Of a stretch of DNA of 64,000 bases, positions 15,860 to 34,392 are shown piece by piece (within the stretch, counting starts at the first letter, position 1; every line of letters starts with the position of its first letter). The notes beneath the pieces are model-generated. The model did no database searches, was not told the DNA's origin, and was given only the letters and a program-made list of their open reading frames with translations. The DNA comes from Anaerolineae bacterium. GTDB taxonomy: Bacteria; Chloroflexota; Anaerolineae; 4572-78; NAK82. A program made the translations under genes and the position numbers. The stretch lies in contig DAOTVI010000082.1 in assembly GCA_034436775.1 (NCBI GenBank), positions 2,753 to 66,752 on the forward strand. The letters run 5' to 3'.

Positions 15860-18800
15860 CTAGCTCCCCGGTGTCTCAGAGACTTTTGATGCAGTATCTG
15901 CGTTCGGTCTGTCGGGCGAGGATTGCCCCAAGATCCGATGAAGCGTTTCCTCCAATTCCTTAAATTGCACCGGCTTCGCGATATATCCATCCATCCCCGC
16001 CTCCAGGCAACGTTCACGGTCGCCCTTCATCGCGTGGGCGGTCATGGCAATAATGGGCACGTGACGGCCGGTACCGCGCTCTTGCCTGCGGATCAGCGCC
16101 GTCGCCTCAAAACCGTCCATCTCGGGCATTTGCACGTCCATTAATATCAGGTGATAAGGGATGGTCTGCCACGCCCGTACCGCCTCCAGGCCATTGGCCA
16201 CCACATCCACCCGATAACCCAGCTTCTCCAGCATCCGCAGTGCAACTTTCTGATTGATCACATTGTCTTCGGCCAGCAAGATGCGCGCCTTAGGCGGGCT
16301 TTCAACGGTTCCGCCTTCCGCTGCGGCAGGCAAGGGGGCAGTGGGTAACGGATGGGTAGCCCGGCGATGGCCGGCCGCGATCAAAGCCTCCAACAGCTGT
16401 CGGTTGCGCACCGGTTTGGTGAGCACGGCATCCACACCGACCGAACGCAATTGATCAGCCTCTGGCCGTCGGTCCATCGAGGAAAGCATTACCAGCGCGA
16501 CCGAATCCAGGTCATGGTTGGTGCGGATACAATTGGCCAACATCTCGCCGTCCATATCCGGCATCTGCATATCGATCAGCACCACCCGATACGGTTCTTC
16601 ATCCCTCTCGACCGTTTGGAGCAGCTTTTGCAACGCTTCACCGGCGCTTGCGACTTCCTCGGGTTGACATCCCCAGTTACGTAGTTGCTCGCGCAAGATC
16701 AGGCGGTTGGTCGCGCTGTCGTCCACGATCAGCACGCGGCGTCCGCGCAGCCAATCGGGCAAAGGCGGGACGGTCTCCTCGGCAGCCTCCATAGGCAGCT
16801 TTTCGAAAACGGCCGTAAACCAAAACGTGGAACCTTTGCCCACCTCACTCTCGGCCCCAATTTGTCCTCCCATGAGTTCAGCCAGCCTTTTTGAGATCGC
16901 CAACCCCAACCCAGTGCCACCATACTTGCGCGTGGTCGAAGCGTCTAACTGCGAGAAGGATTGGAAGAGGCGATCAAAGCGATCTTTGGGGATGCCAATC
17001 CCGGTATCCCGCACCACAAAGCGCACTGTGACGTGGGTAGCCGTCTCCTGCTCCCGGACCACGTGCAAGACTACCTCTCCCCTCTCGGTGAACTTGATTG
17101 CGTTGCCGATCAAGTTGGTGAGAATCTGGCGCAGGCGACCTGGGTCGCCTCGCACACGCGCCGGCACATTGGCGGCGATGTGACAGGCAAATTCCAGATC
17201 CTTGCGCTGCGCCTCAATGGCCAACATATCGGCAGTGTCTTCCACGGTGGCGCGCAGATCGAAGTCGAGCATCTCCAGCTCCAGTCGCCCCGCTTCGATC
17301 TTGGAATAATCCAAAATATCGTTGATGATCTGCAACAGCGATTCGGCGCTGTTATGCACCGTCTCAGCATACTCGCGTTGCTCTTTGTTGAGTGGCGTGT
17401 CGAGCAATAAACCGGTCATGCCCAAAATGGCGTTCATCGGGGTGCGGATCTCATGGCTCATATTGGCCAGGAATTGGCTCTTGGCGCGGCTGGCAGCTTC
17501 GGCCGCTTCCTTGGCCTGGCGCAGCGCTTCCTCGATCCGCTTGCGCTCGGCCAGCTCCCTCTGTACGGCTTCGTACAGGCGACTGTTCTCCAATGCGTGA
17601 CCCGCCACCGCTGTCACCGCCTGCACCAGGCTGATCTCCTCTTCGGTGAATTGACGCGGCGCGGTGGCGTCCAATCCCAATGTCCCGACAATCTGATCCC
17701 GTACCAGGAGCGGCACGATCATCAAGGTCACCGTGCCGCGGGCACGATGGAGATCGTGCACCGCGGCTGTGCGCGCATCTGTCTGGGCATTGGGAATGAT
17801 CACCGGAGCGCGGGTGGCCAGCACCTCCTGTGTGGCCGGGTTGTTGGCAAGCGGGATGACCGCCCCCAATCCCGATGGGCGATCGGGACGGCGGTATTCG
17901 GCCACCACACGCAGCGCCTGACGATCTTCGGTGAACAGGGCAAACGCCGCCTGCGGCAGGTCGAGTGCCTGTGCGAGCTCCGTGCAAATCGCTTCCAGGA
18001 CTTGATAGGGATCCAAACTGGACGCTGCAGCCATCAAAACGCGATTCATCAGCTGCAGGCGCTCCAGACTGCGACGGATTTCCTCCTCGGCCCGCTTGCG
18101 CTGGGTAATATCGTGCCCGATCCCGACAATGCCGATGACTTTGCCCGCCGCATCACGCAGAGGCACCTTGGTGGTCGCAAGCCATACCGGATTGCCTTGT
18201 GCGTCCCGTGCGGGTTCCTCGATATTCAGCAGGAGCTGACCGGTTTGGATGACGCGCTGCTCGTCCCGGTAGAATTTCTCGGCCAGTTCTCGGGGATAGA
18301 AGTCGAAATCGGTTTTGCCGAGCAGCTCATCTGGAGTGGCCGCGCCCATCAGCTGTGCCAGTGCCACGTTGCCCACAAGAAAACGGCCCTCGGTGTCCTT
18401 CACGTAAACGAAGTCCGGCAGGTTGTCGATCAGGACGCGCAGCAGATTACGTTCTGCACGCAGTTGCGCTTCCATCTCCCGGCGCCAGGTGATATCTGTG
18501 CCGATGGAGAGGATTTCCTGCAAGTTGCCGTGTTCGTCGTAAATGGGTTTGTTCGTCCATGCCACCCAGAGGCGTGAGCCATCACGGCGCATGTTCTCGT
18601 TTTCGTTGTAGCCGCCACGCTCGGGATCAGCCAGGATGCTTTCCACCATCAAATCCAGCGGACGTCCGGCCGAGTCCACCGGTGGCACAATCGTGCCCAC
18701 TACATGGTGGCCGAGCACCTCTTGGGCTGTGTAACCGAAAACCTTTTCGGCAAACTCGTTAAAGAAGGTGATACGACCCTGCGCGTCCACCCGCAGGATG

Positions 18801-21166
18801 ATGCTGTTAGCATGTTGCAGCAGCTCGCGATAACGCGCCTCACTGGCACGCCGCGCTTCTTCTGCCTGCACGCGCACGATCGCACCGCCAACGGTCGCCG
18901 CGATGGCTTCCAAGGCGCTGCGCGTGTACAGAGGTATCTCATCCTTTGTCCAGGACATCACCACAATGCCGGCAATGACCTTTTCTTCGTGCTGAACAGG
19001 CAGCAATGCAATGGCCCGCCCTGGATGTTCAGGTTGATAATTAAACAAGGCATGCAAATGGTCACAATGCGTGTAGACGGGTTCCCCGGCCATCAGCAGC
19101 CGTGTCAGCGGTGAATCCGGTGCACTTTGGGCGGTGATAGCGATGAACTCCTCAGACATTCCCTGTTGGTAGGCCAGGGACAAGCTGCCGGTGCGTTCAT
19201 CGACCAGATAAGTGGCACCACCTTCCATATCGGATACGCGCAGTGCGGCGGCGATGCACAGGCGGAATGCTTCTGCTTCCACAGCGCTCAGCGCCAGGCC
19301 CAGGTCGCGCTGAACGCGGCCCAGCTCTTCAGCGCGCACCCGTTCGGTGACGTCGCGCAGCACCCCGCGGAAGCCGATAACCTTTCCTCCGGTATCTCGG
19401 ATGACAACCGCTGTCGCTTCACACGCGATCAGTGTGCCGTCCCGACAACGTACCCACAAGGACAGAGGGGGTATGGATTGTCCACTCTGGAGCTCCTGAG
19501 CTGCCTTCAAGACCTTCTCCCACGAATCCGAGGTCAACAGCTTGTTGATGGGTATTCGGAGGAGATGTTCGACCTCATACCCCGAGAGACGATGGGCCAT
19601 TTGGTTCACATAGGTGATGTTCAAATCGGTGTCGAGCTCAAAGATGACATCGGGCAGCATTTCGGCCATCTCACGGAAGCGCGCCTCGCTCGCTTGCAAG
19701 GCCATCTGGCGCGCCTGCACCGCTTGACGCATATGTTCCAGCGTTGTCGCCAGCGTCCCAATCTCGTCGTGAGAGGGAACGGGGATCGGCTGATCATAGT
19801 CACCATGTGCCAGGCTCTGTGCCGCATGACTGATCACGGTGAGCGGCCGATTGATCGAACGGGCCAGGACAAAAGCGACCACCGTGACGAAAAGCAGCAT
19901 CAGAATAACGGCGGCCACATAGGACAGCCGTAGCCGGGTGATGTTCTGGGTGATTGTTGCGGTTCCGTGGGCAATATGTCCATCCAGGCGGGCAAGTGTC
20001 AGATTCTGCAACGCTACGACTTCCTCGGCGGGTGCGACAAGGCTGATGCTCCATCCGGGCGGCTCGACGAGCTCAAAGGCCCAAAAGTACCTCTTGCCAT
20101 CCGGGGCAGTATAGCTTTCCAGGCCACTTTCACCGCCTTGGATGCGCTCAATCACAGCACGGAACGGGCCATTTTTGATTTGATCGAGATAGATTGAAAG
20201 TGGCTGGCCCCACTGAAACTCCCCGCTCAGCTCAGCATCAATTCCCAAGAAGGGGGCTGCTTGGGGTGGGAAAGCGATGAGCTGGCCGCTGCGTACCATC
20301 AAGAAGGCAAAGCCGGTCTGCTGAACGTGAACACTATCGACATATTCGCTCAGCACATTGAGCGTGACATCCAGGCCTACCACACCGACCAGTTCTGAAT
20401 TCCCACGATAGACAGGGGCAATACAGGAAACCATCCAGCCCATGCCGGCCGGATCCCAATAAACACCGGTCCACACCGGTTTGCGTTCGGGATTGTGTTG
20501 TGCATCGGCCAGATAGTAGAACTCATACGAAGTCATATCTTGATCGGGCGAGATGGTGGCGTCGGCGTCTATGTCAATGGGTTCACCATCCATAAAGCGC
20601 ATGCCGCGCGTGAGGTGGCTCTGCGTGTTAATATAAGCTTGGCCGACCAGTGGATTGCGCTTCCCAATGCTGGCAAAGACCAGATCCAGGTACTCGGTCA
20701 GATAGATCTCCTGAAGTAGCTCGGCACTCACCTGCCCGTTCTCATCCAGCCCGGGATTGAGCACGACCAGCCACGAATAGTCACCTCCACTCAAACTGGA
20801 AAATGCTCCGTTGGCACCGATGCCATAGCGGTGCGGACGCGCGTAGCGCTTTAATGTATCGGCATGGTTATAGAGGTAGGTGGCATAGTCTGCTAAATAG
20901 GTGACATCCGTCTCGACGTGGGAGAGCTGCAAGGCACGTCGAGCGGAAACGTCTTCTGCTTGCGTTTCCAAAGCCTTTTTCAGCTGTTCGGTGAGCAGGA
21001 TGGACCAATCGTGCACGGCCATTTCGGCCACCTCACGATTGGTTTGCTGAGCGATCACAGAGGTCTGTTCCAGCGTGAGATAAGCGGCTGCTCCGCCGCC
21101 CAGGAAAGACACCGCCATAACCAGGATCAGCGCCAGAAGCAATTTGACGAAACGGCTCACCCTCAT
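15860..21166 (-). CDS. hybrid sensor histidine kinase: TM-dCache-TM-HAMP-PAS-GAF-PAS-PAS-GAF-HisKA-HATPase-REC-REC
   Basis: [15 protein letters not shown]-box, DTGIG and GGTGLGL boxes, two REC domains (LIDMQMP, LMDVQMP), extracytoplasmic WTGVYWD Cache motif. Confidence 0.93.
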
Positions 21167-21200: not shown

Positions 21201-21476
21201 TTATGCATGCCACTCGATCTCATCCACGACGCCGGCCAGTACGGCACGCACCGCACCATCCGGCTCACGACCGAGAATTTGACGCCCCGAATTGCCTTCG
21301 TCAATGACGAATACGATGTCGCCCGGACCAGCCTGGGCGACATCGACACAGATGTCGTACTCGCCGGTCGGATTGCCGTTTAAATCCAGCTGATCGACCA
21401 CAAGCAGGCGGCGCCCTTCGTAGATCTCCAGCTTGATCGTACTCATCACACTTCCTCGCACGCGTCCGATGTACAT
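21201..21476 (-). CDS. EutN/CcmL family microcompartment vertex (BMC-P) protein
   Basis: MYIGRVRGSVMSTIK...VDVAQAGPGDIV...GNSGR...VRAVLAGVVD; start reassigned to 21476. Confidence 0.9.
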   Translation of the reverse strand: MYIGRVRGSVMSTIKLEIYEGRRLLVVDQLDLNGNPTGEYDICVDVAQAGPGDIVFVIDEGNSGRQILGREPDGAVRAVLAGVVDEIEWHA

Positions 21477-21504
21477 TGCAGAACCTCGTCCGTTTCGCAT
21501 TCGG

Positions 21505-22185
21505 TCATGGGTTTTCCATAAGCAGGCGTTCTTCGTTCAAGATTTGGAGACTGGCCTGGGCGCTGACTCCCAGACGCGTCGCGCCTGCTTCTATCAGGGC
21601 GATCGCATCCGCATAAGTGCGAATGCCACCCGCTGCCTTGATGCCTACAGCAGGTGGCGTCACACGACGCAATAGGGCTACGTCGTGCACCGTTGCCCCG
21701 CTCGGGCCATAGCCCGTTGACGTTTTTACGAAATCCACTCCTGCGGCGACTGCCAGCTGACAGGCGCGTACTTTTTCATCGTCGCTCAGCAGGGCACATT
21801 CCAAGATGGCCTTGCACCGCGCACCGTGATCGTGGCAGAGCCGCACGATAGCTCCCAGGTCATGCTCCACCAGGTCATAGCGGCCATCCTTGAGAGCGCC
21901 CAAGTAGATCATCACATCCAGCTCATTGGCGCCCCCGCGCAGTGCGCTGCGTGCCTCGTACCATTTCACCCAGGTGCTCGTGCCACCCAGGGGGAAACCG
22001 ATCGCACATGCCACAGCGATGCCTGTGCCGCGCAGCAGACGACTCGCGAGATGAACATGGACTTCATTGACCGCCACGGCGGCAAAGCGATGCTCACACG
22101 CCTCCCGGCATAGACGAGCGATTTGCTCGGGTGTGGCGTCGGCGCGTACCAAAGTGTGATCGGTGTAGGATGCAATGCGGCTCAC
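21505..22185 (-). CDS. deoC: deoxyribose-phosphate aldolase, copy 2 (no N-terminal extension)
   Basis: DHTL, IGFPLG, ELDVM, FVKTSTG (Schiff-base Lys), IKAAGGIR. Confidence 0.9.
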   Translation of the reverse strand: MSRIASYTDHTLVRADATPEQIARLCREACEHRFAAVAVNEVHVHLASRLLRGTGIAVACAIGFPLGGTSTWVKWYEARSALRGGANELDVMIYLGALKDGRYDLVEHDLGAIVRLCHDHGARCKAILECALLSDDEKVRACQLAVAAGVDFVKTSTGYGPSGATVHDVALLRRVTPPAVGIKAAGGIRTYADAIALIEAGATRLGVSAQASLQILNEERLLMENP

Positions 22186-22205
22186 AGGCCGCCCCCTTTG
22201 CCGCT

Positions 22206-23093
22206 TCAGGATGCTGAGCGCGCGCCTTCTATGATTTTAAGGCTGGCACTGGCGCCGATACGGGTGGCTCCAGCCTTGAGCATCGCCACAGCGTCCTGAT
22301 AGGTTCTGATTCCGCCGGCCGCTTTGATCCCCATATCCGGCCCCACTGTCTGCCGCATCAGCATCACGTCATGCAAGGTTGCGCCACCCGGACCAAACCC
22401 GGTCGATGTTTTGACGTAGTCGGCGCCCGCCTCTTTGGCCAGCTGACACGCCTTGATTTTTTCATCATCGGTCAACAACGCGGCTTCGATAATCACCTTG
22501 CAGATGGCACCGTGGTTATGACAAGTGCGCACCACAGCAGCGATATCTTCTCTGACCAAGTCGTAATCTTTGCTTTTGAGCGCGCCGATGTGGATCACCA
22601 TATCTATCTCAGTGGCGCCATCGTTGATCGCCTGCTGTGTTTCATAGCACTTGACATTGGTGGGTGTTGCACCGAGTGGAAATCCAACCACCGAACAGAC
22701 TCCGACTCCTGACCCGCGCAACAGCTGGGCACACAATCGCACGTGGACGGGATTGACGCATACCGTAGCAAAACCGTACTGGCGTGCTTCCTCGCACAGC
22801 TGAGCAATTTGGGCGTAAGTGGCGTCCGGCTTGAGCAACGTGTGGTCAATATAACGCGCGAGCTCCTGGGGCGTTACCTGTACATCCGATAAAATACCCG
22901 GGCGCCGCGTATCATCCCGAATCGTTTTCGAGAGGCGTTGCGCACCTTTCTCCTCACATTGCTGGCAAGAGGACGCGGTGTCCGTTGCTCGTTGCAAGCC
23001 ACCTGACCGACCGCTCTGCTCATTCAAAGCAGCCAACACCTGTCTGGTTATCTCCTCAACTAATGAATCAATCGTTTTGGGATCTAACTGCAT
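22206..23093 (-). CDS. deoC: deoxyribose-phosphate aldolase, copy 1, with N-terminal encapsulation-peptide-like extension
   Basis: [29 protein letters not shown]; N-terminus [18 protein letters not shown] followed by CQQC; probable start 23093. Confidence 0.93.
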
Positions 23094-23134
23094 ATGACCT
23101 CTCGATATTGACATCATCCTCTGGAAAGCCTCTT

Positions 23135-23845
23135 CTATCTCTTGAGGTAGCGTGCCTCAATGGCCATCATCTTGTCAATGCGCGGCTGATGGCGACCTCC
23201 CTCGAAATGGGTGCTCAACCAGGTCTTGACAATCTGCTTTGCCAAATTGGGACCCAGCAAACCGGCGCCCAGCGTCAGCACATTCGCGTCGTTGTGCGCG
23301 CGGCTATTGACGGCAGACATCTGGTCATAGCACATTGCCGCACGGATCCCCGGCACTTTGTTGGCGACCATACACGAGCCAATGCCTGCACCATCAATGA
23401 TGATGCCCCGGAAGGCAGCTCCGTTGGCCACATGTCGAGCGACCGCATAAGCGAAGTCGGGATAATCCACCGCTTCCTTGCTGTGCGTGCCGACGTCCAA
23501 CACTTCATAGCCCAGCTCGATGAGGAAGGGTTTCAGCATCTCTTTGAGCTCATAGCCTCCGTGGTCGGCCCCTAAAGCCACCACCTTGCCTGTCGCAGGT
23601 GCGGGGGTTGCCTGACCACTTCTAGCGGGTGCCTCCTCAATCAGGATCTTGCGCGCTAACGCGATCTCGCGCGCCATAGGAGTGACGATGGTGCCTGGCT
23701 CGATCTGGATTTTGCTCCCAGGTTCCAATTGCTCGATCTCTTGGCTGGTCAGCAGCCTATGTTCACCACGCCGGGTCTCGCGCAGCACGCGATGAAGCAC
23801 ATGGCGCACTAAATCTCTGATTTCTGCTTCACGAGGGTTCATCAT
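23135..23845 (-). CDS. rpiB: RpiB/LacA/LacB family sugar-phosphate isomerase with N-terminal encapsulation-like helix and extra domain
   Basis: [33 protein letters not shown]; N-terminal [14 protein letters not shown] and [10 protein letters not shown]. Confidence 0.9.
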
Positions 23846-24092
23846 AACAAGTGTCCACGGCACGTGAGAAACTGACGCTGGATCAGCCTAACGCGCATCT
23901 AGAACGGATTATAGGATGCCCACAAACGTGAGTCAAAAGGGGTGTTCAAGGCTTCGTCGGAACTGGGAGCAAATAGGGAGGCCAAAAGAGCACAGGCGGT
24001 ATCCGCAACGGACAGAAAGGCACGCACCGGCAATTCCACGCCCAGGATGCCGAATGTCACCGCCTCCAAAGGGTGATCACCGACGAGGTGTT

Positions 24093-25856
24093 TTAACGCC
24101 AGTCGGTCAGTGGGCCGCGTTTGCCGTAGTTAACCGCTGCGATGACCAGATCAAAAATGTTGACCATCTGATCTCCATTGAAATCGACCAGGGGGTCGCT
24201 GCCTCCGTAATTGCCAGCCACGGCGGCTATATCGAAGATGTTGACCAGGTTATCGCGATTCACGTCTCCGGCAAGTAGCGCTATCGTGCCGAGCGAGCCA
24301 GACGGTGTCGTCTTTTGTGCGCTCAGGAATCCAGGCCGCACTGCCCACAGACATGGTCCCCTCTGCCCCGGCGGCAGTTGAAAGCGGCCATGGGCATCGG
24401 TGGTGGCGACTTGATCCCCTGAAAGGGATGCGGTGCATGGTTGGCCGCTCAGATAGATCGCGGTGCCATCATGCGTGTTCCGACTCTGTAAGAGCACAGT
24501 GCCGCTGATAGGCGTTCCAGGTCCCGCTCCGCCTGTAACCCGCTGGACTGCCGCGTAGGCATCCACGCGCGGTGTGACACGGCCATTCCTCCGGTCAGTG
24601 ATGGGCACACCCGTTTCCTTGAGGATGCTCTCGACTTGCCCGGCCGAAAGCCCTGGCTGCGCCTGCAGCAACAAAGCAGCGACGGCAGAAGCGTGTGGCG
24701 TGGCCATAGAAGTCCCAGAACGGCTGCTCACCCCACCCCCTAGCCCGGCCGAGGTGATCACCGCTCCCGGGGCCAACAGGTCCAAGGCGGGACTGCTGTT
24801 GCTCGTGCAGGCGATCTGATCCACTGCCGTGCTGGCATCGGTGCAGATGGGGTTCGCGCCCCCCCATGTATACGCTCCCAAGTTGGCATCATAGGTGCTG
24901 CCGACAGCGATCACACTGGAAATACATGCCGGGGTCATCATCTTATCGGCCATAGCCCCGTTACCTGCCGCGGCAAATACAATGATGCCCGCACGTTGGG
25001 CTGCCTGCACCGCAGAGGCATATAGCATGCTATTGGCATCCGCCGCGTCGCATATGCCGGAATAGGCCCCTCCCCCCAGGCTGAGATTCATAATGCGCAC
25101 GTTTAGACGTGGCTGATTGGCGACGACCCAATCGATGCCTGCCACCACATCTGAAGTCCAACCGCTGCCGGCACTGTTGAGCACACGAACGGCCACGATG
25201 CCGGCATCCGGCGCGATGCCACGCGGTGCGACAACCCCACGCCCGGTGACAATGCCGGTGACGTGTGTGCCGTGTCCGTTCTCGTCGCGGGCGCTGTCGC
25301 TCTCATTGGTGTTCGCCGGTGGACACGTGCCATGGTTAAAGCAGTGTTGCGCCACAATGCTGTCATTGATATCCGGATGGTTGGGATCATATCCGCTGTC
25401 AAGCACGGCGACATTGACACCGGCGCCGGTGAACCGGAATTCACCCCACACACGGTCGGCACGGATCACGGAGGCACTTTCCCCTAATGCTGCCTGTACC
25501 GGTAGATCCAATGCGACGGCCTGCACCAATGGGTTGCTGAGCAACGCTTGCCAGCCCTGCGGAGTCACCGTACCGGCCAGACCCGGCACAACGGAGTAGC
25601 GATGGAGCGGTTGAAAATCCGCGCCGGGGATGCTGGCCAACACCACATCTTGCGCCTGGGCCACCACTTTTGCCTGTGCTGCGATGTCGGCACCCTCCAG
25701 AGGAGGCCGCAACACCACAACCACGCGCATCGATTGGAATGCATCCTCTCCCCATTGGGCCAGACAGGGCGGCGCCATAGATGCCAGAAGGGCAAGCAGA
25801 CCCAGCCATAACCACAGTCGAGGACCGATGCGACAGCCGTGATATATGGAGTGCAT
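24093..25856 (-). CDS. secreted S8 (subtilisin-like) serine protease with C-terminal X-module and dockerin
   Basis: Signal peptide, propeptide, triad VLDSG / NGHGTHVTG / GTSMATPH; C-terminal GDVNRDNLVNIFD...DFNGDQMVNIFD duplicated Ca-binding loops. Confidence 0.92.
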   Translation of the reverse strand: MHSIYHGCRIGPRLWLWLGLLALLASMAPPCLAQWGEDAFQSMRVVVVLRPPLEGADIAAQAKVVAQAQDVVLASIPGADFQPLHRYSVVPGLAGTVTPQGWQALLSNPLVQAVALDLPVQAALGESASVIRADRVWGEFRFTGAGVNVAVLDSGYDPNHPDINDSIVAQHCFNHGTCPPANTNESDSARDENGHGTHVTGIVTGRGVVAPRGIAPDAGIVAVRVLNSAGSGWTSDVVAGIDWVVANQPRLNVRIMNLSLGGGAYSGICDAADANSMLYASAVQAAQRAGIIVFAAAGNGAMADKMMTPACISSVIAVGSTYDANLGAYTWGGANPICTDASTAVDQIACTSNSSPALDLLAPGAVITSAGLGGGVSSRSGTSMATPHASAVAALLLQAQPGLSAGQVESILKETGVPITDRRNGRVTPRVDAYAAVQRVTGGAGPGTPISGTVLLQSRNTHDGTAIYLSGQPCTASLSGDQVATTDAHGRFQLPPGQRGPCLWAVRPGFLSAQKTTPSGSLGTIALLAGDVNRDNLVNIFDIAAVAGNYGGSDPLVDFNGDQMVNIFDLVIAAVNYGKRGPLTDWR

Positions 25857-26816
25857 TCAGTCGGCCCTTTCGAGTTGCTGCAATTCAGCCTGAGCGATCG
25901 GATTACCCGGATCGAGCGCCAACACACGCTGAAAGCAGATGCGCTTTTCGCTGATTTGATGCGCAACTAATCCCTTTCCCAGCCAGGCCTCGCTATTAGC
26001 AGGGTCTCGTTCCACCGCACGGCTGAACAGCTCGTGGGCAAGCTCCAGATTGCCCTGTTGCATCGCACGGCGGCCCTGCTCTGTCAGCGTAGCAGCCACT
26101 TCGCCGGCGCTTTGTTCTGCAACCGGCATGCCACCATTGTGCACGACCACCGCACCCTTCAAAGCGGCTGCGCGACGCCTCTGATACGCAACTGAAAGGA
26201 CGATGAGCATCAGCAGCCCCCCTCCAATCCCGAGAAGCCACCAGCCCCATAGAGCGGTGTCTTGTCTCTCCGACAAGCTGACGTCCGAGGGGGCAGACAA
26301 TACCAGGTTCTCACTGACCACCAGGATGGTGGTCAAATTTGAGGAAACCAGCTGAGCCCGCACGATCTCCACAGAATAGGGGCCATTGCCCAGAATGCGG
26401 AACGCGATGGTCGCCAGCACACCTTGCCCGCTGACAGGCGGTGCCGGATTGAGCAGCGTGGCCACAAAGGTGATCAACCCGGCCGTGGCATCCACCTTAT
26501 TAGTCACGACAAAACGTTCGTCGGCAGCTAACAAGGGGCCCGGAGCAATTTGGATGCCCTCTAAACGTGGATTGGCGTCCTCGACTTGGAGTTGGCTCGG
26601 ATCATAGCGCAGCTGCACATCGACGCCGTACAGATCTACGACGTCGGCCACCATAAGATTCACGAGCACCCGCCTCTCGTCCTGGAGGAGGACGGGCTGC
26701 AGATATACGCGCGCTTGCCCTTGAGCAGACACGCTCATGATAGGAGTCAGCGCAACAAACAGCGCTAAGACGAGCATCAAGAGCTTCATTATCGTGCGCA
26801 AGAACACCCTACTCAC
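25857..26816 (-). CDS. cohesin-domain protein with C-terminal TM helix and TPR region
   Basis: Signal peptide; DLYGVDVQLRYDPSQLQVEDAN...GIQIAPG...SGQGVLATIAF; TM followed by RRR; TPR AHELFSRAVERDPANSEAWLG. Confidence 0.8.
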   Translation of the reverse strand: MSRVFLRTIMKLLMLVLALFVALTPIMSVSAQGQARVYLQPVLLQDERRVLVNLMVADVVDLYGVDVQLRYDPSQLQVEDANPRLEGIQIAPGPLLAADERFVVTNKVDATAGLITFVATLLNPAPPVSGQGVLATIAFRILGNGPYSVEIVRAQLVSSNLTTILVVSENLVLSAPSDVSLSERQDTALWGWWLLGIGGGLLMLIVLSVAYQRRRAAALKGAVVVHNGGMPVAEQSAGEVAATLTEQGRRAMQQGNLELAHELFSRAVERDPANSEAWLGKGLVAHQISEKRICFQRVLALDPGNPIAQAELQQLERAD

Positions 26817-26884
26817 CCCATCTCGGAGGACTCAGCCCCGCACAAACCTCTCTGACCCAACACCCTCGTTCAACTGAATAGTAT

Positions 26885-27550
26885 TTAACGCAACACTACT
26901 TCGATCGCCTGGGCATTTCTGTTCACCAGCGTTACCGTCTCGATTGTGATATCGGTGTCCGGAGCGATGGCCGCCTGCCCCAAGATCGTGGCAACAGTTC
27001 CGCTGCCATGGAATGCGGCAGCGTCGCCCAATTGAGTCGCAATATAGCGAATGATCCCCTTTGCATTATCCACATCGTTCACGGCCACGAAATCAGGTCG
27101 GGGTACTTCTCCCGGTTTGATTTGGATCCCGCTTCTCTCTGCATCGGCATCCGCGACCTGCCATTGTGTGGGATTAAATCGGATTGTCACATCCACTGCA
27201 TATAAATCTCGCACATTGTCCACCTGCACCATAAACGCCCTGTCATCCGGCGTACGCATCAGGCGCAGCGTCGCAATATCGGAAGAGTGCACACGTTCAA
27301 CCGGCTCCGCGGTCTTTTGCGTGAGTGAAGCAGCCTCTGTGTCACTCGACATAGACGATGCCGTCAGGGTATTCAGCGTCGAATCACCCTCTCGGGACAA
27401 ACCGGCCACAGATGGGGAAGGTTCACCTCCAATGGGGGTTTCGACCATAGCTGGCCCGGCGCCCCCGCAGCTCGCCAGGCCAAAAGCGCAGAGCAACAGC
27501 ACAATCGCTAATCCCCAATGCAGATAGCTGCGATGTCGCACGGAAATCAT
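26885..27550 (-). CDS. cohesin-domain lipoprotein
   Basis: Lipobox LASC (start reassigned to MISVR at 27550); DLYAVDVTIRFNPTQWQVADAD...GIQIKPG...PDFVAVN...GSGTVAT. Confidence 0.8.
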   Translation of the reverse strand: MISVRHRSYLHWGLAIVLLLCAFGLASCGGAGPAMVETPIGGEPSPSVAGLSREGDSTLNTLTASSMSSDTEAASLTQKTAEPVERVHSSDIATLRLMRTPDDRAFMVQVDNVRDLYAVDVTIRFNPTQWQVADADAERSGIQIKPGEVPRPDFVAVNDVDNAKGIIRYIATQLGDAAAFHGSGTVATILGQAAIAPDTDITIETVTLVNRNAQAIEVVLR

Positions 27551-27955
27551 AGACCCTTTCCCGACTGCGCTAACGAAACTTGATAATGGAACGGAAGTGT
27601 GACCAATTGTAACGAACGGCGCCGTAAAGGGCAACATAGCTGAAGCGGATGATAGCCACATTTCCAAGCGCACAAGGTCACCATGCCAGATGGGAAGGAT
27701 AATTGTGCCATACCAATACCTCCATCGCCATGATCACATGGATAGAGCGGTTCTCCTCGCCGAGGGATCGCAACACCCGGTGCGCGCCTCTCCCTCTCGC
27801 ATTTTCATGATAGAGATAGAAAGGGAGCGATCTCAACTATGGCAGTTCTGAAGATCATCCCTCAAAAACACCGAGGCCTCATCCGTGTTGTCACGGATAA
27901 GGCCTCGGTGGGTGCCACGCGGGTCAAGGTTTCGGTGTCCCCAAGAGCGACACTG

Positions 27956-28936
27956 TCAACGGGGTGGGATCAACAAGACCTGACCGGCTCGGATATAGTT
28001 GGGATTGGGGATATTGTTGTATGCAGCTAATTGCCAGACATTCACCCCGAAGCGGCGCGCAATGGAGAACAGCGTATCACCATACTGCACAACATACCGG
28101 CTGGGTGCCGGGCCGGGTCCGGGGGGCATAGGTCCAGGTGCCGGGATGATAAGCAGCTGTCCCACATAGATCAGGTTGAGATTGGGAATGTTGTTCAGCG
28201 ATGCCAGCTGCCAGATGCTCACCCCAAAGCGACGCGCAATCGAGTACAATGTATCACCCCGTTGCACGACATAGCGCGTCGGTGTCGGTGGCGGCGTCAC
28301 CGTCATCGGCGGTGGGGGTGTCAGGGTTACCGGCGGCGGGGGTGTCGGGGTCATCGGCGGCAGCGTCGGAGTCGGCGGGGGTGGACCACCACCGCCAACG
28401 ATGATGTTACCACCCTGCGAAGAGGCGGGCAGCTGTTGCCCCTGGGCATTGGCCAGATTGACCAGGCTGAACGTGAGATCAACGGTGCCTGCTGCCTGAC
28501 CGCGAAAGACAACGGTGGCCAACAGCCCGCTGCCGTTGACCGGGGCTTTCGGCGGCAACTGGGTCAGCGCATAACGGATGACGCCAGTTGCATTGTCAGC
28601 AGAGTTCAGCGCGACGAAATCAGGAGAGGGGAAATTACCGGGTTGGATCTGAACCCCGTCGCGGCCGGGATCGGCATCTTGGACTTGTAAGGCAGCTGGG
28701 TTGAAACGCAGCTCGATATCGGCAGCATATAGCCCGGAAGCGTTCTCAATGCGGATCTCGACCGTGGCGGTCTGCCCAATGCCTATTTGTTGGGTGCCTG
28801 GCTGGACACGTACCACGGTGCCTGCCTGCATAGCAGCAGCCGGGCCGACCGCGAAGAAACTGCCAATCATCATTGCTACAAGCACGATCCCAACTATCGC
28901 CGGCAACGAATGCCTGATATTCCTTCTCTGTATCAT
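27956..28936 (-). CDS. secreted cohesin-Pro/Thr linker-2x LysM protein
   Basis: [22 protein letters not shown]...GVQIQPG...PDFVALN...[10 protein letters not shown]; [17 protein letters not shown] and [17 protein letters not shown]. Confidence 0.88.
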
Positions 28937-29409: not shown

Positions 29410-32016
29410 TTGATAAAACAGGGAATTGGCCAGGAGATCATCCTAATGATGGAAAACTCCCCAGCACAAAAGACGGAAGGACGCTACCTGGAGCAACCCA
29501 TCGTGTGGCAGCGGTTGATTGATGCCCTTCCCGACTTGATCTACGTGAAAGATCCAGAAAACCGCTATATAGCAGTAAATCGTGCGATGGCGCTTTTTCT
29601 CGGCGCACCCGATCCAACCGCTGTGGTGGGCAAGACGGACTATGCATTCTATCCATCCGAGATAGCCGACCGTCTGAGAGCCGATGAGCAAAATGTGATG
29701 CGCAATGGCTGTCCTATGGTCGACTATGAGGAGTTGCTTCCATGCCCTGCTTCCGGAGAGATGTGCTGGATCTCCACAACTCAAGTGCCAATACGTGACC
29801 ACCGCGGCGCCATCGTTGGTTTGATTGGCATTGGCAGACACATCACGGCACGCAAACGCGAAGAGGCAGCGCGCCAGGCCCGGCTGGCACGCCTGGAACG
29901 GCAACAACGTGCGCTTGTCACCTTGGCAACCCATCCAACGGTTCTTTCGGGCGACTTCGAGGCAGCTTGCCGTATCATCACTGAGCTGGCAGCCGAGACT
30001 ATGGAGGTTGAGCGCTGCAGCATATGGTCGCTGGAGAACCCGCGGGAATTGCGCTGTGTCAACCTGTTCGAACGCTCCTCAGGCCGTCATTCAAGCGGAA
30101 TGGTCTTACAAGCGGAACATTATCCAAGATACTTTGAGGCGATTCACACCGCACGCGTCATCGATGCGCACGATGTCTTGGCAGATGCCCGAACCAATGC
30201 GTTCTCTGATGATTATCTCATTCCCCTGGGCATCACCTCATTGCTGGATGCTCCGGTGCGCGTAGAAGGCCAGGTCGTCGGCATTGTGTGTCATGAACAT
30301 GTCGGGCCTGCGCGCCGCTGGCATGAGGACGAAATTGTCTTCGCAGGCGAAGTAGCGGATCAAGTGGCACAAGCGCTGCTGAATCGCCGACAGCAAAAGG
30401 CCGAAGAGGCATTGCGCCGCAATCAGGAGCGGCTTGAGCTGGTATTGCGCGGCGCTGGTTTGGGCATGTACGACTGGAACCTGCGCAGCGGAGAGGTGGT
30501 GATCAACGCACGATATGCTGAAATGTTGGGCTATACCCTTGAGGAGCTACAACCGTTCACGATCCAGACTTGGGTGGATCTGATCCATCCCGAGGATCGC
30601 CCCCAGGAGATGGAAGCCCTCCAAAGGGAGATGAACGCGGATTTCCCGCTCGTGGACACTGAATATCGGATGCGCACCCGTGATGGGGATTGGAAATGGA
30701 TCCTTGACCGAGGCAAGGTGGTCGAATGGGACCAAGATGGGAAGCCTTTGCGCATCTGTGGCACCCACTTGGACATCACGGAACGCAAGCGGGCAGAAGA
30801 AGCGCATCACAAGCTGCTCGCCCGCGCAATGGAGACCCAGAAGCTCGAAGCGATTGGCCAGCTCACCGCCGGCATTGCCCATGAATTCAACAACCTTTTG
30901 ACGAGCATCAACGGCTTTGCCGAGTTGCTCCAAATGGAACTGGCGTTGGATGACCCACGCCGCCACAGAGTTGAGCGCATCTTGGCCTCCGGCCAGCGCG
31001 CCGCACGTCTGGTCAATCAATTGCTCGCTTTCGGGCGCAGACAGATCATTATGCCCCAAGTGCTGGATCTCAATCGGGTGTTAGGTGGCATGATATCGGT
31101 GGTGCGTATGGCATTGCGCTACAACATCGCGCTGGTCACCGATTTCGAACCTGCCCTGTGGCTGGTCAAGATCGACCCCGCCCAGGTCGAGCAAATCGTG
31201 CTCAACCTGGTGTTCAATGCACGCGACGCGATGCCGGAGGGTGGTACCCTCACCATACGCACCGCCAATGTCATGCTTGATAAGGCATCTTCAGAACGGC
31301 ATCTTGACTTAGAAGCCGGGCGATATGTGCTCCTAGCGATCGAAGATACTGGTATTGGAATGGATAACTATGTGAAGCAGCACCTCTTTGAGCCATTTTT
31401 CACAACCAAAGAGGTGGGCAAAGGCACCGGCCTGGGCCTGGCAGCAGTGTTCGGCATCGTCAAGCAAAATGGAGGCGATATCACCGTCGAAAGCTCTCCG
31501 GGCACAGGCACGGCGGTGCACATTTATCTACCGGCGGTCGAGGAAGCCGGTGTCCCGGACAAACACCTGAGAACGCCCGAGGCGAGCCAACCCCTCCCTC
31601 TTGGAACGATTTTGGTGTTCGAAGAACACGAAGGGGTGAGACAACTCGTGCAGGCGATCCTGGATCAAGAAGGATATCAGACGCTCATCGCAGCAAATAA
31701 GCAAGAGGCACTGGCGCTGGCCACACAGTATGGCGGCCGGATCGATCTATTGATCACCGACGAACCATCCGATGCGCCCTTGTCCAGTGCGGACAGCGGT
31801 CACGTGATCGAAGCCCTGCTTGCAACCTGTCCGGGTATGAAAGTGCTCCACATGACCGCTTACGAGGACGAGCTCCAGGAGAAGGAACGCAAAGCCCCTC
31901 CTGGCGTCGCCTATATTCTCAAACCCTTCCGCCCCTCTGAGCTGGCCATACAGGTGCGCCGCCTTCTGGAACGCGGAACTCAGTATTCCAGCGAGGAAGC
32001 GCGCCCCAACCGCTGA
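29410..32016 (+). CDS. cytoplasmic hybrid histidine kinase PAS-GAF-PAS-HisKA-HATPase-REC
   Basis: [24 protein letters not shown]...GTGLGL; C-terminal REC (LLITD...ILKPF). Confidence 0.9.
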
Positions 32017-32993
32017 CGGAAGACCCAGTAAGACCACGCCTGATAGAGCAATACCACCGGCACCAAAGCCAGTGCAATATAGCTCATAATCCTGAGCGTA
32101 TAAGCGCTGGACGATGCGGTGTAGATGGTCAGACTCCAGTCTGGATTAAGGCTGGAGACCATCACGCGGGGATACAATCCGAGGAATAAAGCGCTCACCA
32201 CCAGAAGGATGGTAATTCCCACGGTGGCGAAGGCAACGCCGGGACGGCCCTTCTGGAGCGACAATCCTGAAATCCCCAATGCGACACCTGCCAGCAATGG
32301 CAGCAGGAACAGCGCCGCCGGCCATCGCGTCGTCACGTCCGTCGTGAGGACGCCGACGGCCAACGCCACCAGTAATACGACGAACGTGGGTGCCCACAGC
32401 TGTCTTGCCGTGGTGCGCGCTTGTGCCGCAATCTCTCCCTCGGTCTTCAAAGCGAGGAAAATGGCCCCGTGGAAGAGAAACCCGAGAACGCCCGCCAGGC
32501 CCCATATCAACGCCGGCAAATTGAGAAGGGTGATCAAGCTGCCCTGATAGGTCATCTGGGCATCGATCGGCACCCCGCGCAGCAAATTGAAGAGAGCCAC
32601 CGGCAACAGGAGTGAGGGCACCAGGCTCCCTGCAAAGAGCATCCAATCCCAAACGCCACGCCAACGCGGGCTCTCCAGCTTGCTGCGAAACTCAAACGCG
32701 ACGCCCCGCACAATCAGGGCCAGCAGCACCAGCACAAACGCGATGTAAAATCCACTAAACATCGTAGCATACCAGTGCGGAAACGCGGCGAACAGCGCTC
32801 CCCCGGCGGTGATTAACCACACTTCGTTACCATCCCAGTGTGGTCCGACGGTGTTGATGAGTACCCGGCGTGTTCGGTCGTCTTTGCCGAGGAAGGGCAA
32901 TAGCATGCCCACTCCATAATCAAAGCCCTCGAGGAAGAAGAAACCGGCGAAGAGCACACCGATCAGGATGAACCACAACGTATTCAGATCCAT
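31980..32993 (-). CDS. cydB: cytochrome bd ubiquinol oxidase subunit II
   Basis: LEGFDYGVG, GPHWDGNEVWLI, RGVAFEFR. Confidence 0.95.
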   Translation of the reverse strand: MDLNTLWFILIGVLFAGFFFLEGFDYGVGMLLPFLGKDDRTRRVLINTVGPHWDGNEVWLITAGGALFAAFPHWYATMFSGFYIAFVLVLLALIVRGVAFEFRSKLESPRWRGVWDWMLFAGSLVPSLLLPVALFNLLRGVPIDAQMTYQGSLITLLNLPALIWGLAGVLGFLFHGAIFLALKTEGEIAAQARTTARQLWAPTFVVLLVALAVGVLTTDVTTRWPAALFLLPLLAGVALGISGLSLQKGRPGVAFATVGITILLVVSALFLGLYPRVMVSSLNPDWSLTIYTASSSAYTLRIMSYIALALVPVVLLYQAWSYWVFRQRLGRASSLEY

Positions 32994-33015
32994 CTTCCTC
33001 TGCCCCCTTCATGCA

Positions 33016-34392
33016 TCAATAAGCCAATGCAGCGGATTCCGGCTGCTCTTGTTCCGTGGTTCCTTGCTTGGCAAATCGCATCAGCAAGTAGATATCTGCG
33101 ATCATCAACCCACCGTAAACCAGGGTGAAGAGCAGAAGCGAGAAGGCCAACATGCCGGGCGTGACCGTCGGTGATATCGCGTCTTTAGTTTTCTGCAAAC
33201 CATAGACGATCCACGGCTGGCGCCCCATTTCGGTGAGCAGCCAACCGGCGGTGTTCGCGATATAAGGCAGACCGATGGCCGGGATCAGCACCCGGAGGAA
33301 GATCGGGGCACGCTCAAATTTTCCACGCCACACCAGAATCACGGCAATAAGGGCCAGCAAGGCCAATAGAAAGCCAGCTCCTACCATGATTCGGAAGGCG
33401 AAGTAGCTCAGCATCACTGGAGGTACATAGTTATCCGGTCCCAAACGAGCCACGTAATCCGCCTGAAGGTCTTCAATGCCCTTTATTTCTCCACTGAAGC
33501 GATTGTAGGTCAGAAAGCTCAACACAGCCGGGATGCGAATCGCGATCAGCTCTGAGACTCGACTCTCATCCTGGTGCACAATGCTAAACAGAGAGAAGGA
33601 AGCCGGATCCTCGCTGCGAACCAGCGCCTCGAGTGCGGCCAGCTTCATCGGCTGGCTCTGCGCGATGTGCTGCGTCTGGGCATGGCCGACCAGAATGACC
33701 AACACGCTTCCGATGATGGCAGCGATTGCACCCATGCGAAAAGAACGCTGAAAGGCCTCTCGATCGTCATTTCGCTTGAGCAGGTGATAAGCGCTGATAC
33801 CCATAATGAAGAAGGACGCCGTCACGATCCCCGAAGCGAGGACATGGGGATACTGGGTGATGATGTTGGGATTGGTGATCAAAGCCCCAAAATCGGTCAA
33901 CTGCGCCCGACCATCAACGATGGCATAACCGACAGGCTGCTGCATAAACGAGTTGGCAATCAGGATCCACAGGCCCGAAAGATTGGAGCCGAACGCGACC
34001 AGCCACATCGTCGCGGCATGCAATGCTTTGGGCAGCCTATTCCAACCGAAAATCCAGACGCCCAAGAAGGTCGACTCAAGGAAAAACGAGCTCAAAGCTT
34101 CGGTTGCCAGAGGCACCCCGAAGATATCGCCCATAAAACGGGCATACTCCGACCAGTTCATGCCAAACTGGAATTCCAGGACGATACCGGTGACCACACC
34201 CAGGGCAAAATTAATGAGGAGCAATTTGCCCCAGAACTTTGTCATACGTTTGTACACTTCTTTCCCAGTACGCACATAGACAGTTTCCATAATCGCCACT
34301 AGGATGGGAAGTCCCAGTGTCAGGGGAACAAAAAAGAAGTGATAGACGGTTGTAATGCCAAACTGCAGACGTGCCAATGTCACCGCATCCAT
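33016..34392 (-). CDS. cydA: cytochrome bd ubiquinol oxidase subunit I
   Basis: ARLQF...HFFFVPLT, EFQFGMNW, FFLES, QPMKLAA, EMGRQPW. Confidence 0.96.
   Translation of the reverse strand: MDAVTLARLQFGITTVYHFFFVPLTLGLPILVAIMETVYVRTGKEVYKRMTKFWGKLLLINFALGVVTGIVLEFQFGMNWSEYARFMGDIFGVPLATEALSSFFLESTFLGVWIFGWNRLPKALHAATMWLVAFGSNLSGLWILIANSFMQQPVGYAIVDGRAQLTDFGALITNPNIITQYPHVLASGIVTASFFIMGISAYHLLKRNDDREAFQRSFRMGAIAAIIGSVLVILVGHAQTQHIAQSQPMKLAALEALVRSEDPASFSLFSIVHQDESRVSELIAIRIPAVLSFLTYNRFSGEIKGIEDLQADYVARLGPDNYVPPVMLSYFAFRIMVGAGFLLALLALIAVILVWRGKFERAPIFLRVLIPAIGLPYIANTAGWLLTEMGRQPWIVYGLQKTKDAISPTVTPGMLAFSLLLFTLVYGGLMIADIYLLMRFAKQGTTEQEQPESAALAY

Follow-up and report, generated by a model that had tools for sequence, protein, structure and literature searches.

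The 64,000-nucleotide (nt) window analysed here, a stretch of contig DAOTVI010000082.1 of a filamentous Chloroflexota bacterium of the class Anaerolineae to which all statements on this genome refer, contains between positions 24,093 and 28,936 a cluster of four consecutive genes on the minus strand that encode three differently anchored cohesin proteins and a dockerin-bearing S8 protease. The original prediction, made from the letters of the DNA, had proposed that these genes form a non-cellulolytic system for displaying a protease on the cell envelope, and an open reading frame (ORF) check recovered all four at the coordinates it had given, while Pfam and motif scans confirmed their architectures. 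Gene (i) (27956-28936; 326 amino acids, aa) encodes a signal peptide, a cohesin, a Pro/Thr linker and two LysM repeats, and gene (ii) (26885-27550, with the longest ORF reaching 27673) encodes a lipoprotein signal peptide, a stalk and a cohesin. Gene (iii) (25857-26816; 319 aa) combines a signal peptide, a cohesin, a linker, a transmembrane helix and a TPR domain, and gene (iv) (24093-25856; 587 aa) a signal peptide, an I9-like propeptide, an S8 catalytic domain, a beta sandwich and a dockerin. A six-frame regular-expression scan of the whole 64 kb gave exactly three occurrences of the shared cohesin motif and exactly two of the dockerin Ca2+-loop motif, in every case inside 24.1-28.9 kb. The gene starts, promoters and terminator discussed below are predictions.

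All three cohesin domains pass the Pfam cut-off for Cohesin PF00963 (24.1 bits) by small margins, with scores of 28.7 bits for (i), 24.7 for (ii) and 34.7 for (iii). Their pairwise identity is 32-38%, and the alignment retains as invariant elements LY..D...R..P...QV.DA, G.QI.PG and G.G..AT, so the common motif that had been noted at first sight is borne out by alignment as well as by the regular-expression scan. Hidden Markov models (HMMs) built in this analysis recognize the cohesins of (i) and (ii) at 3e-44 and 2e-41, respectively. An AlphaFold2 model of (iii) based on 28 orthologues has a mean predicted local distance difference test (pLDDT) score of 86 and comprises a signal helix, a beta sandwich at residues 35-173, a helix at 190-218 and five helices at 237-318, with values mostly above 90 in the cohesin domain. 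When this model was compared with the PDB by Foldseek, all 50 matches listed were cohesins (E 5e-9 to 6.5e-7), including type I and type II cohesins from complexes, 2jh2, and 2xdh, which is the best match by target template modelling (TM) score (0.77), at identities to solved cohesins of 10-18%. According to the model, the cohesin of (iii) is therefore a beta sandwich like those of the solved cohesins.

The three proteins differ in the way they appear to be held at the envelope, and the three anchors that had been proposed for them are upheld. The cohesin of (i) (aa 42-174; nt 28415-28813) follows a signal peptide ending AAA/MQ and is joined by the Pro/Thr linker (aa ~183-217) to two full-length LysM copies (aa 219-266 and 278-324; nt 28139-28282 and 27965-28105), which score 127.4 bits against LysM PF01476, above the cut-off, and the protein is predicted to be a peptidoglycan-bound cohesin anchor. 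Its orthologues are found in L004, L007, L009, L011 and L014 among the related loci described below and, downstream of the protease gene, in L003, L005 and L015. Translation of (ii) most likely begins at ATG 27550, which gives a protein of 221 aa, is the start annotated in an identical strain and has the purine-rich GGGAAAGGG 3 nt upstream. The protein carries the lipobox LLLCAFGLAS/C (Cys codon 27467-27469), of which the L[ASTV]GC pattern with its Cys is kept in orthologues from nine loci (L004, L007, L008, L009, L011, L012, L014, L026 and L029), and a low-complexity stalk of ~90 aa rich in Ser, Thr, Ala and Glu separates the lipid anchor from the cohesin (nt 26894-27274), an arrangement that points to a lipid-anchored cohesin on a flexible tether. 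In (iii), a cleavable-looking signal peptide (VSA/QG, with A-x-A-like sites kept in orthologues) precedes the cohesin (aa 34-175; nt 26292-26717), which lies ~15 residues from the transmembrane helix (aa 190-218; nt 26163-26249). The TPR domain (aa 237-318; nt 25863-26108; TPR_16, 34.3 bits) is placed in the cytoplasm because the triplet RRR immediately follows the helix. The cluster would thereby offer three cohesin sockets at three envelope depths, namely the wall, a tethered lipoprotein and the membrane surface.

An alignment of (iii) orthologues revealed that the TPR domain is the best conserved part of the protein, with a mean identity of 65% where the cohesin reaches 57% and the linker and transmembrane segments ~20%, and that the ~20-aa juxtamembrane segment is unconserved. 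The TPR contains the near-invariant motif DPAN..AWLGKG..EK.IC.QR.L.L.P, including a conserved cysteine. Such conservation of a cytoplasmic domain is not explained by anchoring alone and suggests a cytoplasmic partner that fixes the docking site. The earlier description of (iii) as a transmembrane receptor is therefore retained in part: the protein is an anchor of the bitopic type whose cytoplasmic TPR is conserved to an unusual degree, but a receptor role is a guess.

The protease gene is tightly linked to that of the bitopic anchor. At the junction, GAC TGA ATG CAC, the stop codon of (iii) abuts the start codon of (iv) (TGAATG), as had been predicted, and the arrangement indicates that the two genes are translationally coupled. 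An intrinsic-terminator-like hairpin (27869-27910, minus strand; a 19-bp stem with 12 GC pairs, then TTTTT) lies 46 nt past the stop codon of (i), and the promoter-like TTGAGA-18-TATCAT (27836-27807), which like the hairpin is a consensus match only, follows on its 3' side. Because the hairpin and T-run come directly after (i), this gene is probably expressed as its own transcript, and (ii)-(iii)-(iv) probably form an operon; the run of four consecutive genes on one strand is probably split at this point.

Protein (iv) scores 153.5 bits for Peptidase_S8 and has all the hallmarks of a subtilase precursor. An I9-like propeptide (aa 43-116) precedes the catalytic domain (aa 121-445; nt 24522-25496), in which D153, H195 and S383 form the triad and N299 is the oxyanion residue, and a CarboxypepD_reg-like beta sandwich (aa 446-528; nt 24273-24521) connects it to the C-terminal dockerin (aa 529-587; nt 24096-24272). 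All 55 orthologues aligned share the four active-site residues, the Asp residues of the dockerin loops and six Cys, and a sequence search matched PDB subtilases at 3e-35. The AlphaFold2 model built from these 55 orthologues (pLDDT 86.7) displays a signal peptide, the I9-like propeptide, a subtilisin fold, a beta sandwich at 451-531 and two dockerin helices (540-548 and 567-575) with pLDDT above 90. In Foldseek searches, the whole model retrieved subtilases only, with TM-scores of 0.9 on target for subtilisins, and it matched pro-subtilisin E and Tk-SP with the propeptide included. With the triad in subtilase order, the oxyanion Asn, the subtilisin fold and the propeptide all present, (iv) is predicted to be a secreted S8 zymogen. 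The type VII secretion mycosin family TIGR03921 was rejected for (iv), as its 100.6 bits (equivalog cut-off 278.75) reflect generic S8 similarity, and the NCBIfam matches to GG_III-CTERM (E 0.078) and invert_tail (E 0.052) were regarded as noise.

Against Dockerin_1 PF00404, (iv) reaches 16.1 bits with its first repeat only, below the cut-off of 22.9, and in this respect the proposed Pfam scan fell short. However, the module contains two canonical loops, DVNRDNLVNIFD and DFNGDQMVNIFD, of 12 residues each with D/N at positions 1, 3, 5, 9 and 12 and a helix after each, and relatives' dockerins score 25.7-30.6 bits, above the cut-off; PF00404 matches are likewise precomputed for (iv) orthologues, for example P0135, P0141 and P0178. 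In addition, a profile of the C-terminal 72 aa from 19 orthologues matched solved dockerins in the PDB, namely 2y3n_B (7.9e-6), the X-module-dockerin (XDoc) of CipA 2b59_B (9.6e-5) and NagH 2jnk (1.5e-4). The profile match to the CipA XDoc spans the dockerin part only, and the module before the dockerin is CarboxypepD_reg by Pfam (a weak 14.3 bits in (iv), but 35.4 bits, above the cut-off, in L006), so that the X-module and type II analogy of the original prediction is a loose one: the module is doubtful as a type II X-module, and the cluster has no SLH anchor. Its broader claim holds up, since the domains score or fold as cohesins and dockerin by Pfam, the (iii) model, Foldseek and the dockerin profile, and the Pfam scans matched Cohesin, in all three proteins above the cut-off, as well as LysM and TPR.

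A further feature of these dockerins is a C-terminal tail of the form G-P-x-T/S-x-W-(R/Q/E/H), present in every dockerin of the (iv)-type family whatever the cargo and located in the window at 24096-24125 on the minus strand. Cellulosomal dockerins are not known to have such a tail.

Both (iii) and (iv) have many homologues across metagenome-assembled genomes (MAGs) of Anaerolineae and other Chloroflexota. The search with (iii) gave 144 homologues at E<=1e-3, of which the best 120 are listed, and the nearest relative with a name, an Ardenticatenia MAG, is 87% identical in (iii). Gene order was compared in 24 loci of genomes that represent species of the Ardenticatenia, Caldilineaceae and Anaerolineales, plus metagenome contigs, all of which were annotated with the HMMs built in this analysis together with Pfam; the sample includes a MAG labelled Caldilinea aerophila, and the taxon labels are those under which the MAGs were deposited. 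The gene for a cohesin-transmembrane-TPR protein is followed by that for an S8-beta sandwich-dockerin protein in 23 of the 24 distinct relatives with room downstream, the two genes often overlapping or abutting, and more than 30 further (iii)/(iv) homologue pairs among the homologues listed come from contigs of equal size. Conservation of the gene neighbourhood, which the original prediction had named as a check, is thus evident across MAGs of the class Anaerolineae, with (iii) and (iv) as the core.

Around this core the loci follow three layouts. The window clade (layout A) has the LysM-cohesin and lipoprotein-cohesin genes upstream and a cohesin to dockerin ratio of 3:1. Layout B, found in Caldilineaceae and Anaerolineales, has upstream genes for cohesin-plus-dockerin proteins of ~370 aa and ~560-670 aa and for an Amidase_2-cohesin-beta sandwich-dockerin protein of ~860 aa (in one 859-aa example Amidase_2, Cohesin and Dockerin are all above their Pfam cut-offs), often has downstream a lipoprotein cohesin with or without LysM or an M23-cohesin-dockerin protein, and contains cohesins and dockerins in about equal numbers, from 4:4 to 6:6. 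L014 is a hybrid of layouts A and B. Layout C (L031 and L032) consists of Amidase_2-dockerin, S8-cohesin, LysM-cohesin and further cohesin genes, and a recognizable TM-TPR cohesin protein was not seen in these two loci. Throughout the window and all 30+ related loci, each protein has one cohesin. In a neighbour-joining tree of 92 cohesins, those of the anchors stand apart from cargo-borne cohesins, and the window cohesins fall into three anchor clades (TM-TPR, small lipoprotein and LysM/lipoprotein), each spread across several layouts; the anchors are therefore old and separately kept, not recent duplicates. L030 proved to be a TPR look-alike and not a member of the family.

Several relatives encode a cohesin and a dockerin in one chain. 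Such proteins are found in L001 (2038-7912) and, at the same place relative to the core pair, in L003, L005, L006, L017, L019, L021-L023, L025, L027 and L028, and, built of a catalytic or unknown N-terminal domain, a cohesin, a beta sandwich and a dockerin, they could form head-to-tail chains. Protease homologues of 750-790 aa likewise unite S8, cohesin and dockerin (P0151, P0153, P0155, P0189, P0203 and L031 10001-12304), and in L031 and L032 the gene for this protein comes after the Amidase_2-dockerin gene and opposite LysM-cohesin. An ORF of 1126 aa in L006 (11280-14660, the same as L013 13086-16496) joins Amidase_2, cohesin, CarboxypepD_reg and dockerin to a CCP_MauG di-haem cytochrome c peroxidase domain (120 bits) placed behind the dockerin, and is an odd fusion or possibly two genes joined.

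To assess what else the dockerin might carry, the beta sandwich-dockerin cassette of (iv) was used as query in a HMMER scan of 1.84 billion representative proteins. This resulted in 2574 matches at E<=1e-3 and 291 at E<=1e-10, nearly always at the C-terminus. Pfam annotation of 86 full-length cassette proteins (E<=0.001) gave 66 families, of which the 25 most frequent are considered here. Besides Dockerin_1 (53/86) and Cohesin (39/86), they include Amidase_2 in 12 proteins, CarboxypepD_reg in 10, the alpha/beta hydrolase PGAP1 in four, Abhydrolase_1 and Peptidase_S8 in three each, M23, SLT, SH3_3 and CAP in two each and SLH in one. Glycoside hydrolase and carbohydrate-binding module (CBM) families are absent from these 25, in agreement with the system having been called non-cellulolytic. 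Judged by its cargo, the system is indeed non-cellulolytic, with murein and protein hydrolysis as its recurrent catalytic theme. Protease display, as initially proposed, describes the conserved core, and in the 64-kb window the S8 protease is the sole dockerin protein; the theme is wider, however, extending to wall and envelope hydrolases with a peptidoglycan amidase as the main co-cargo in relatives.

Taken together, these findings are best accounted for, in our view and with moderate confidence, by a docking system of the cell envelope that is built on non-cellulosomal cohesin-dockerin pairing and serves the surface retention and positioning of hydrolases. The signal peptides, the lipobox, the six invariant Cys of (iv) and the RRR triplet after the transmembrane helix of (iii) are extracytoplasmic signals consistent with this topology. 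The protease would be exported by Sec as a zymogen, by virtue of its signal peptide and I9-like propeptide, and would mature outside the cell and be held there non-covalently. Its beta sandwich-dockerin cassette, with two Ca2+ loops, would plug in a Ca2+-dependent manner into a cohesin. The primary socket is most likely that of (iii), a protein whose gene is coupled to the protease gene and whose cohesin sits directly on the outer face of the membrane. The cohesin of (ii) on its ~90-residue stalk and that of (i) fixed to peptidoglycan may act as alternative or additional sockets, which would serve the protease or dockerin proteins encoded elsewhere in the genome. The window cluster would be a reduced form of a network kept in Ardenticatenia, Caldilineaceae and Anaerolineales, in which enzyme-cohesin-beta sandwich-dockerin hydrolases of relatives, mainly hydrolases of peptidoglycan, may link up with one another as well as with these three kinds of anchor.

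The most likely role of such a system is proteolysis confined to the cell surface and remodelling of the wall, both directed at the multilayered envelope of the cell itself; this would include the maturation or turnover of hydrolases that have docked, as well as the separation of filaments. Through its conserved cytoplasmic TPR, (iii) probably links the docking site to a cytoplasmic partner. In Litorilinea, a member of the Caldilineae, cryo-electron tomography has revealed a multilayered envelope, polar remodelling and filament breakage (PMC13319060). A more specific version of the docking system, which we hold to be distinctly unlikely, is that the cohesin-dockerin network docks the amidase, murein hydrolases and a controlling protease on membrane, lipoprotein and wall while the TPR couples it to the division or elongation machinery, so that hydrolysis of the septal or polar wall, and with it filament breakage and the remodelling of poles, is directed from inside. 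If true, it would represent an undescribed mode of autolysin placement in filamentous Chloroflexota and a functional counterpart of the FtsEX-EnvC-amidase control, built from cellulosome parts.

Several observations weigh against the docking system as outlined. Domain identities, folds, topology signals, synteny and cargo repertoire are established by the analysis, whereas binding, the pairing of partners and the biological role are inferred, and the choice between own envelope and food leans on the cargo repertoire and on analogy. The (iv) dockerin lies below its Pfam cut-off, three cohesins face a single dockerin in the window cluster, such that at least two sockets may serve unseen partners or none, and in the dockerin tree the sequences from S8, amidase and adaptor proteins are too short, and differ too little, for specificity to be assigned. 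The sole exception to the conserved gene order, L026 (the MAG labelled Caldilinea aerophila), has kept the lipoprotein cohesin and the cohesin-TM-TPR protein (141-1606), and an S8-dockerin gene was not seen within 10 kb, the downstream genes (DUF1385 and SBP_bac_5) lying on the opposite strand. Finally, a strongly conserved TPR is needless for a pure anchor, and (iii) appears to do something beyond anchoring.

The same parts might instead serve feeding, as a 'mureinosome/proteinosome' in which LysM acts as a CBM-like binder of the peptidoglycan of dead or prey cells and the protease, amidase, M23 and SLT enzymes, once docked, break this material down at the cell surface so that the products are captured. 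Caldilineae, Ardenticatenia and Anaerolineae are heterotrophic degraders, the cargo consists of peptidoglycan and protein hydrolases, LysM binds peptidoglycan whatever its origin, and an oligopeptide-type solute-binding protein is encoded near the anchors in L026. Nevertheless, the presence of the core pair at one locus per genome and its highly conserved cytoplasmic TPR fit a housekeeping role at the envelope better, a multi-cohesin scaffoldin that would concentrate many enzymes is missing, the cluster of the window clade retains the protease only, and transporter genes are not conserved in the cluster. We consider feeding rather unlikely, and work on the cell's own multilayered envelope the more likely purpose. 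The high conservation of the TPR relative to the cohesin would also suit a trans-envelope sensor, in which dockerin occupancy or cleavage of (iii) is signalled through the transmembrane helix to the TPR and controls a partner such as a regulator, a logic comparable with RsgI/SigI sensing in cellulosome producers; the window cluster is flanked by large hybrid histidine kinases, and a two-component pair adjoins that of L005. This appears very unlikely, as no regulator gene is conserved beside the core pair, synteny of the flanking kinases does not extend to more distant relatives, signals would be conducted poorly by a single-pass helix followed by the unconserved juxtamembrane segment, TPRs are generic scaffolds, and Pfam and NCBIfam scans of the cluster proteins gave no anti-sigma or sigma signature.

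It is also conceivable, though very unlikely, that the modules are neighbours that do not dock at all, the cohesin-like ones binding glycan, an envelope layer or each other, the dockerin-like tail being a Ca2+-stabilized module and the gene order reflecting a shared envelope function. The Pfam scores of the cohesins barely above and of the (iv) dockerin below the cut-off, the low identity to solved cohesins and the unequal numbers of cohesins and dockerins in the window clade would all be compatible with this. Against it, both modules co-occur in every layout, the 39 of 86 cassette proteins with a cohesin combine the two in one chain, the (iii)/(iv) pair is translationally coupled by all appearances, and cohesin and dockerin are essentially known as mutual ligands, including in archaeal and Clostridium perfringens non-cellulosomal cases (PMC9012536; PDB entries).

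The surroundings of the cluster are of separate interest. Directly downstream of the protease gene, 21201-23863 (minus strand) encodes an EutN/CcmL pentamer protein, two DeoC aldolases and RpiB, in an order that is identical in the identical strain L033. It looks like part of a sugar-phosphate-utilizing bacterial microcompartment locus, and the N-terminal extensions of one DeoC (~85 aa) and of RpiB (~90 aa) may be encapsulation peptides. Hybrid histidine kinases are encoded at both sides of the cluster (15860-21166, minus strand, and 29410-32016, plus strand), one of 1768 aa with the domain order dCache-HAMP-PAS x3-GAF-HisKA-HATPase-two receiver domains and the other of 868 aa; this flanking is retained in the identical strain and absent from distant relatives. 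The cytochrome bd oxidase genes cydA and cydB (31980-34392, minus strand) adjoin the cluster, an adjacency also seen in the 77%-identical relative L004.

Few known non-covalent couplings between proteins are as strong as that of cohesin with dockerin. To our knowledge, non-cellulosomal examples have been catalogued in many genomes, with hardly any having a defined partner set or role. A literature search found no description of this Chloroflexota cluster, of a TM-TPR cohesin, of triple anchoring by LysM, lipoprotein and transmembrane helix, or of murein-hydrolase cargo, in line with the original statement that no characterized Chloroflexota system has such a layout, and a study of Anaerolineae genomes reported neither cohesin nor dockerin in the genomes studied (PMC4877987). 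What is known already is that cohesin and dockerin occur outside cellulosomes, and what appears to be new is a conserved Chloroflexota cluster with defined anchors and cargo. It represents a compact, conserved and testable case, with one protease and one dockerin, three differently anchored sockets and, in relatives, an amidase beside the sockets. If the binding holds true, the cluster would reveal by what means extracellular enzymes are retained and positioned in monoderm-like Chloroflexota, whose envelopes are unusual and multilayered and for which few surface-anchoring systems have been described, and it might account for the organization of filament breakage and wall remodelling. Protein-assembly engineering would also gain new orthogonal cohesin-dockerin pairs, some of them from hot-spring lineages.

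With regard to known systems, a functional analogy outside the cohesin-dockerin world is offered by Bacillus subtilis, in which the S8 proteases WprA and Epr act at the wall beside the amidases and endopeptidases LytC, LytE and LytF, and LysM mediates wall binding. There, retention depends on wall-binding repeats on each enzyme, as opposed to the separate plug and socket proposed here, homology to the window system is limited to S8 and LysM, and a TM-TPR partner is missing.

The anchoring tier of the cellulosome resembles the present system in that the cargo bears the dockerin and the surface anchor the cohesin, and the assembly principle of the cellulosome would have been reused here for an envelope protease and, in relatives, beside wall-cutting enzymes instead of cellulases. 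A cellulosome proper was rejected in view of the single cohesin per protein, the lack of a scaffoldin and the absence of glycoside hydrolases and CBMs from the frequent cassette families. The type II X-module-dockerin of Clostridium (Acetivibrio) thermocellum (CipA with SdbA, Orf2p and OlpB; 2b59, 5k39) has a beta-sandwich module directly before the dockerin, as in (iv), docks its complex onto cell-surface cohesins, has hydrophobic residues (I-F) at positions 10-11 of both dockerin helices as found here, and is represented among the best structural and profile matches of the window cohesin and dockerin. It differs in that its module is the CipA X-module, whereas that of (iv) is CarboxypepD_reg-like by Pfam, in that its anchors are SLH proteins and in that a nine-cohesin scaffoldin is docked instead of a single enzyme; the present system also lacks glycoside hydrolases among the frequent cassette families. 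A type II/SLH anchoring system was likewise rejected, given that the anchors here are LysM, a lipobox and a transmembrane helix and that SLH occurs elsewhere in one of 86 cassette proteins. In C. perfringens, NagH and NagJ (FIVAR-dockerin and cohesin; 2jnk, 2ozn, 2jh2, 2w1n) offer a precedent for non-cellulosomal enzyme-to-enzyme pairing in which the enzymes carry the cohesin; these are, however, secreted glycoside hydrolases that act on host glycans and have no membrane or wall anchors, in contrast to the protease, murein hydrolases and dedicated anchors of the Chloroflexota loci.

The nearest kin are the non-cellulosomal cohesin-dockerin modules, a known kind according to the survey of Peer et al. 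2009 as far as it is summarized in PMC9012536, and in anaerobic methanotrophic (ANME) archaea their common cargo is ABC-transporter binding proteins (PMC9012536). As in the window cluster and its relatives, those of Archaeoglobus fulgidus (2xdh, the entry that gives the best superposition of the (iii) model by target TM-score) and of ANME comprise single cohesins and dockerins without a cellulase context or a large scaffoldin, some proteins contain both modules, and the cargo is unrelated to plant cell walls. What sets the Chloroflexota system apart is that it forms one conserved syntenic cluster with a fixed core pair, three types of anchor and a co-cargo made up mainly of peptidoglycan hydrolases.

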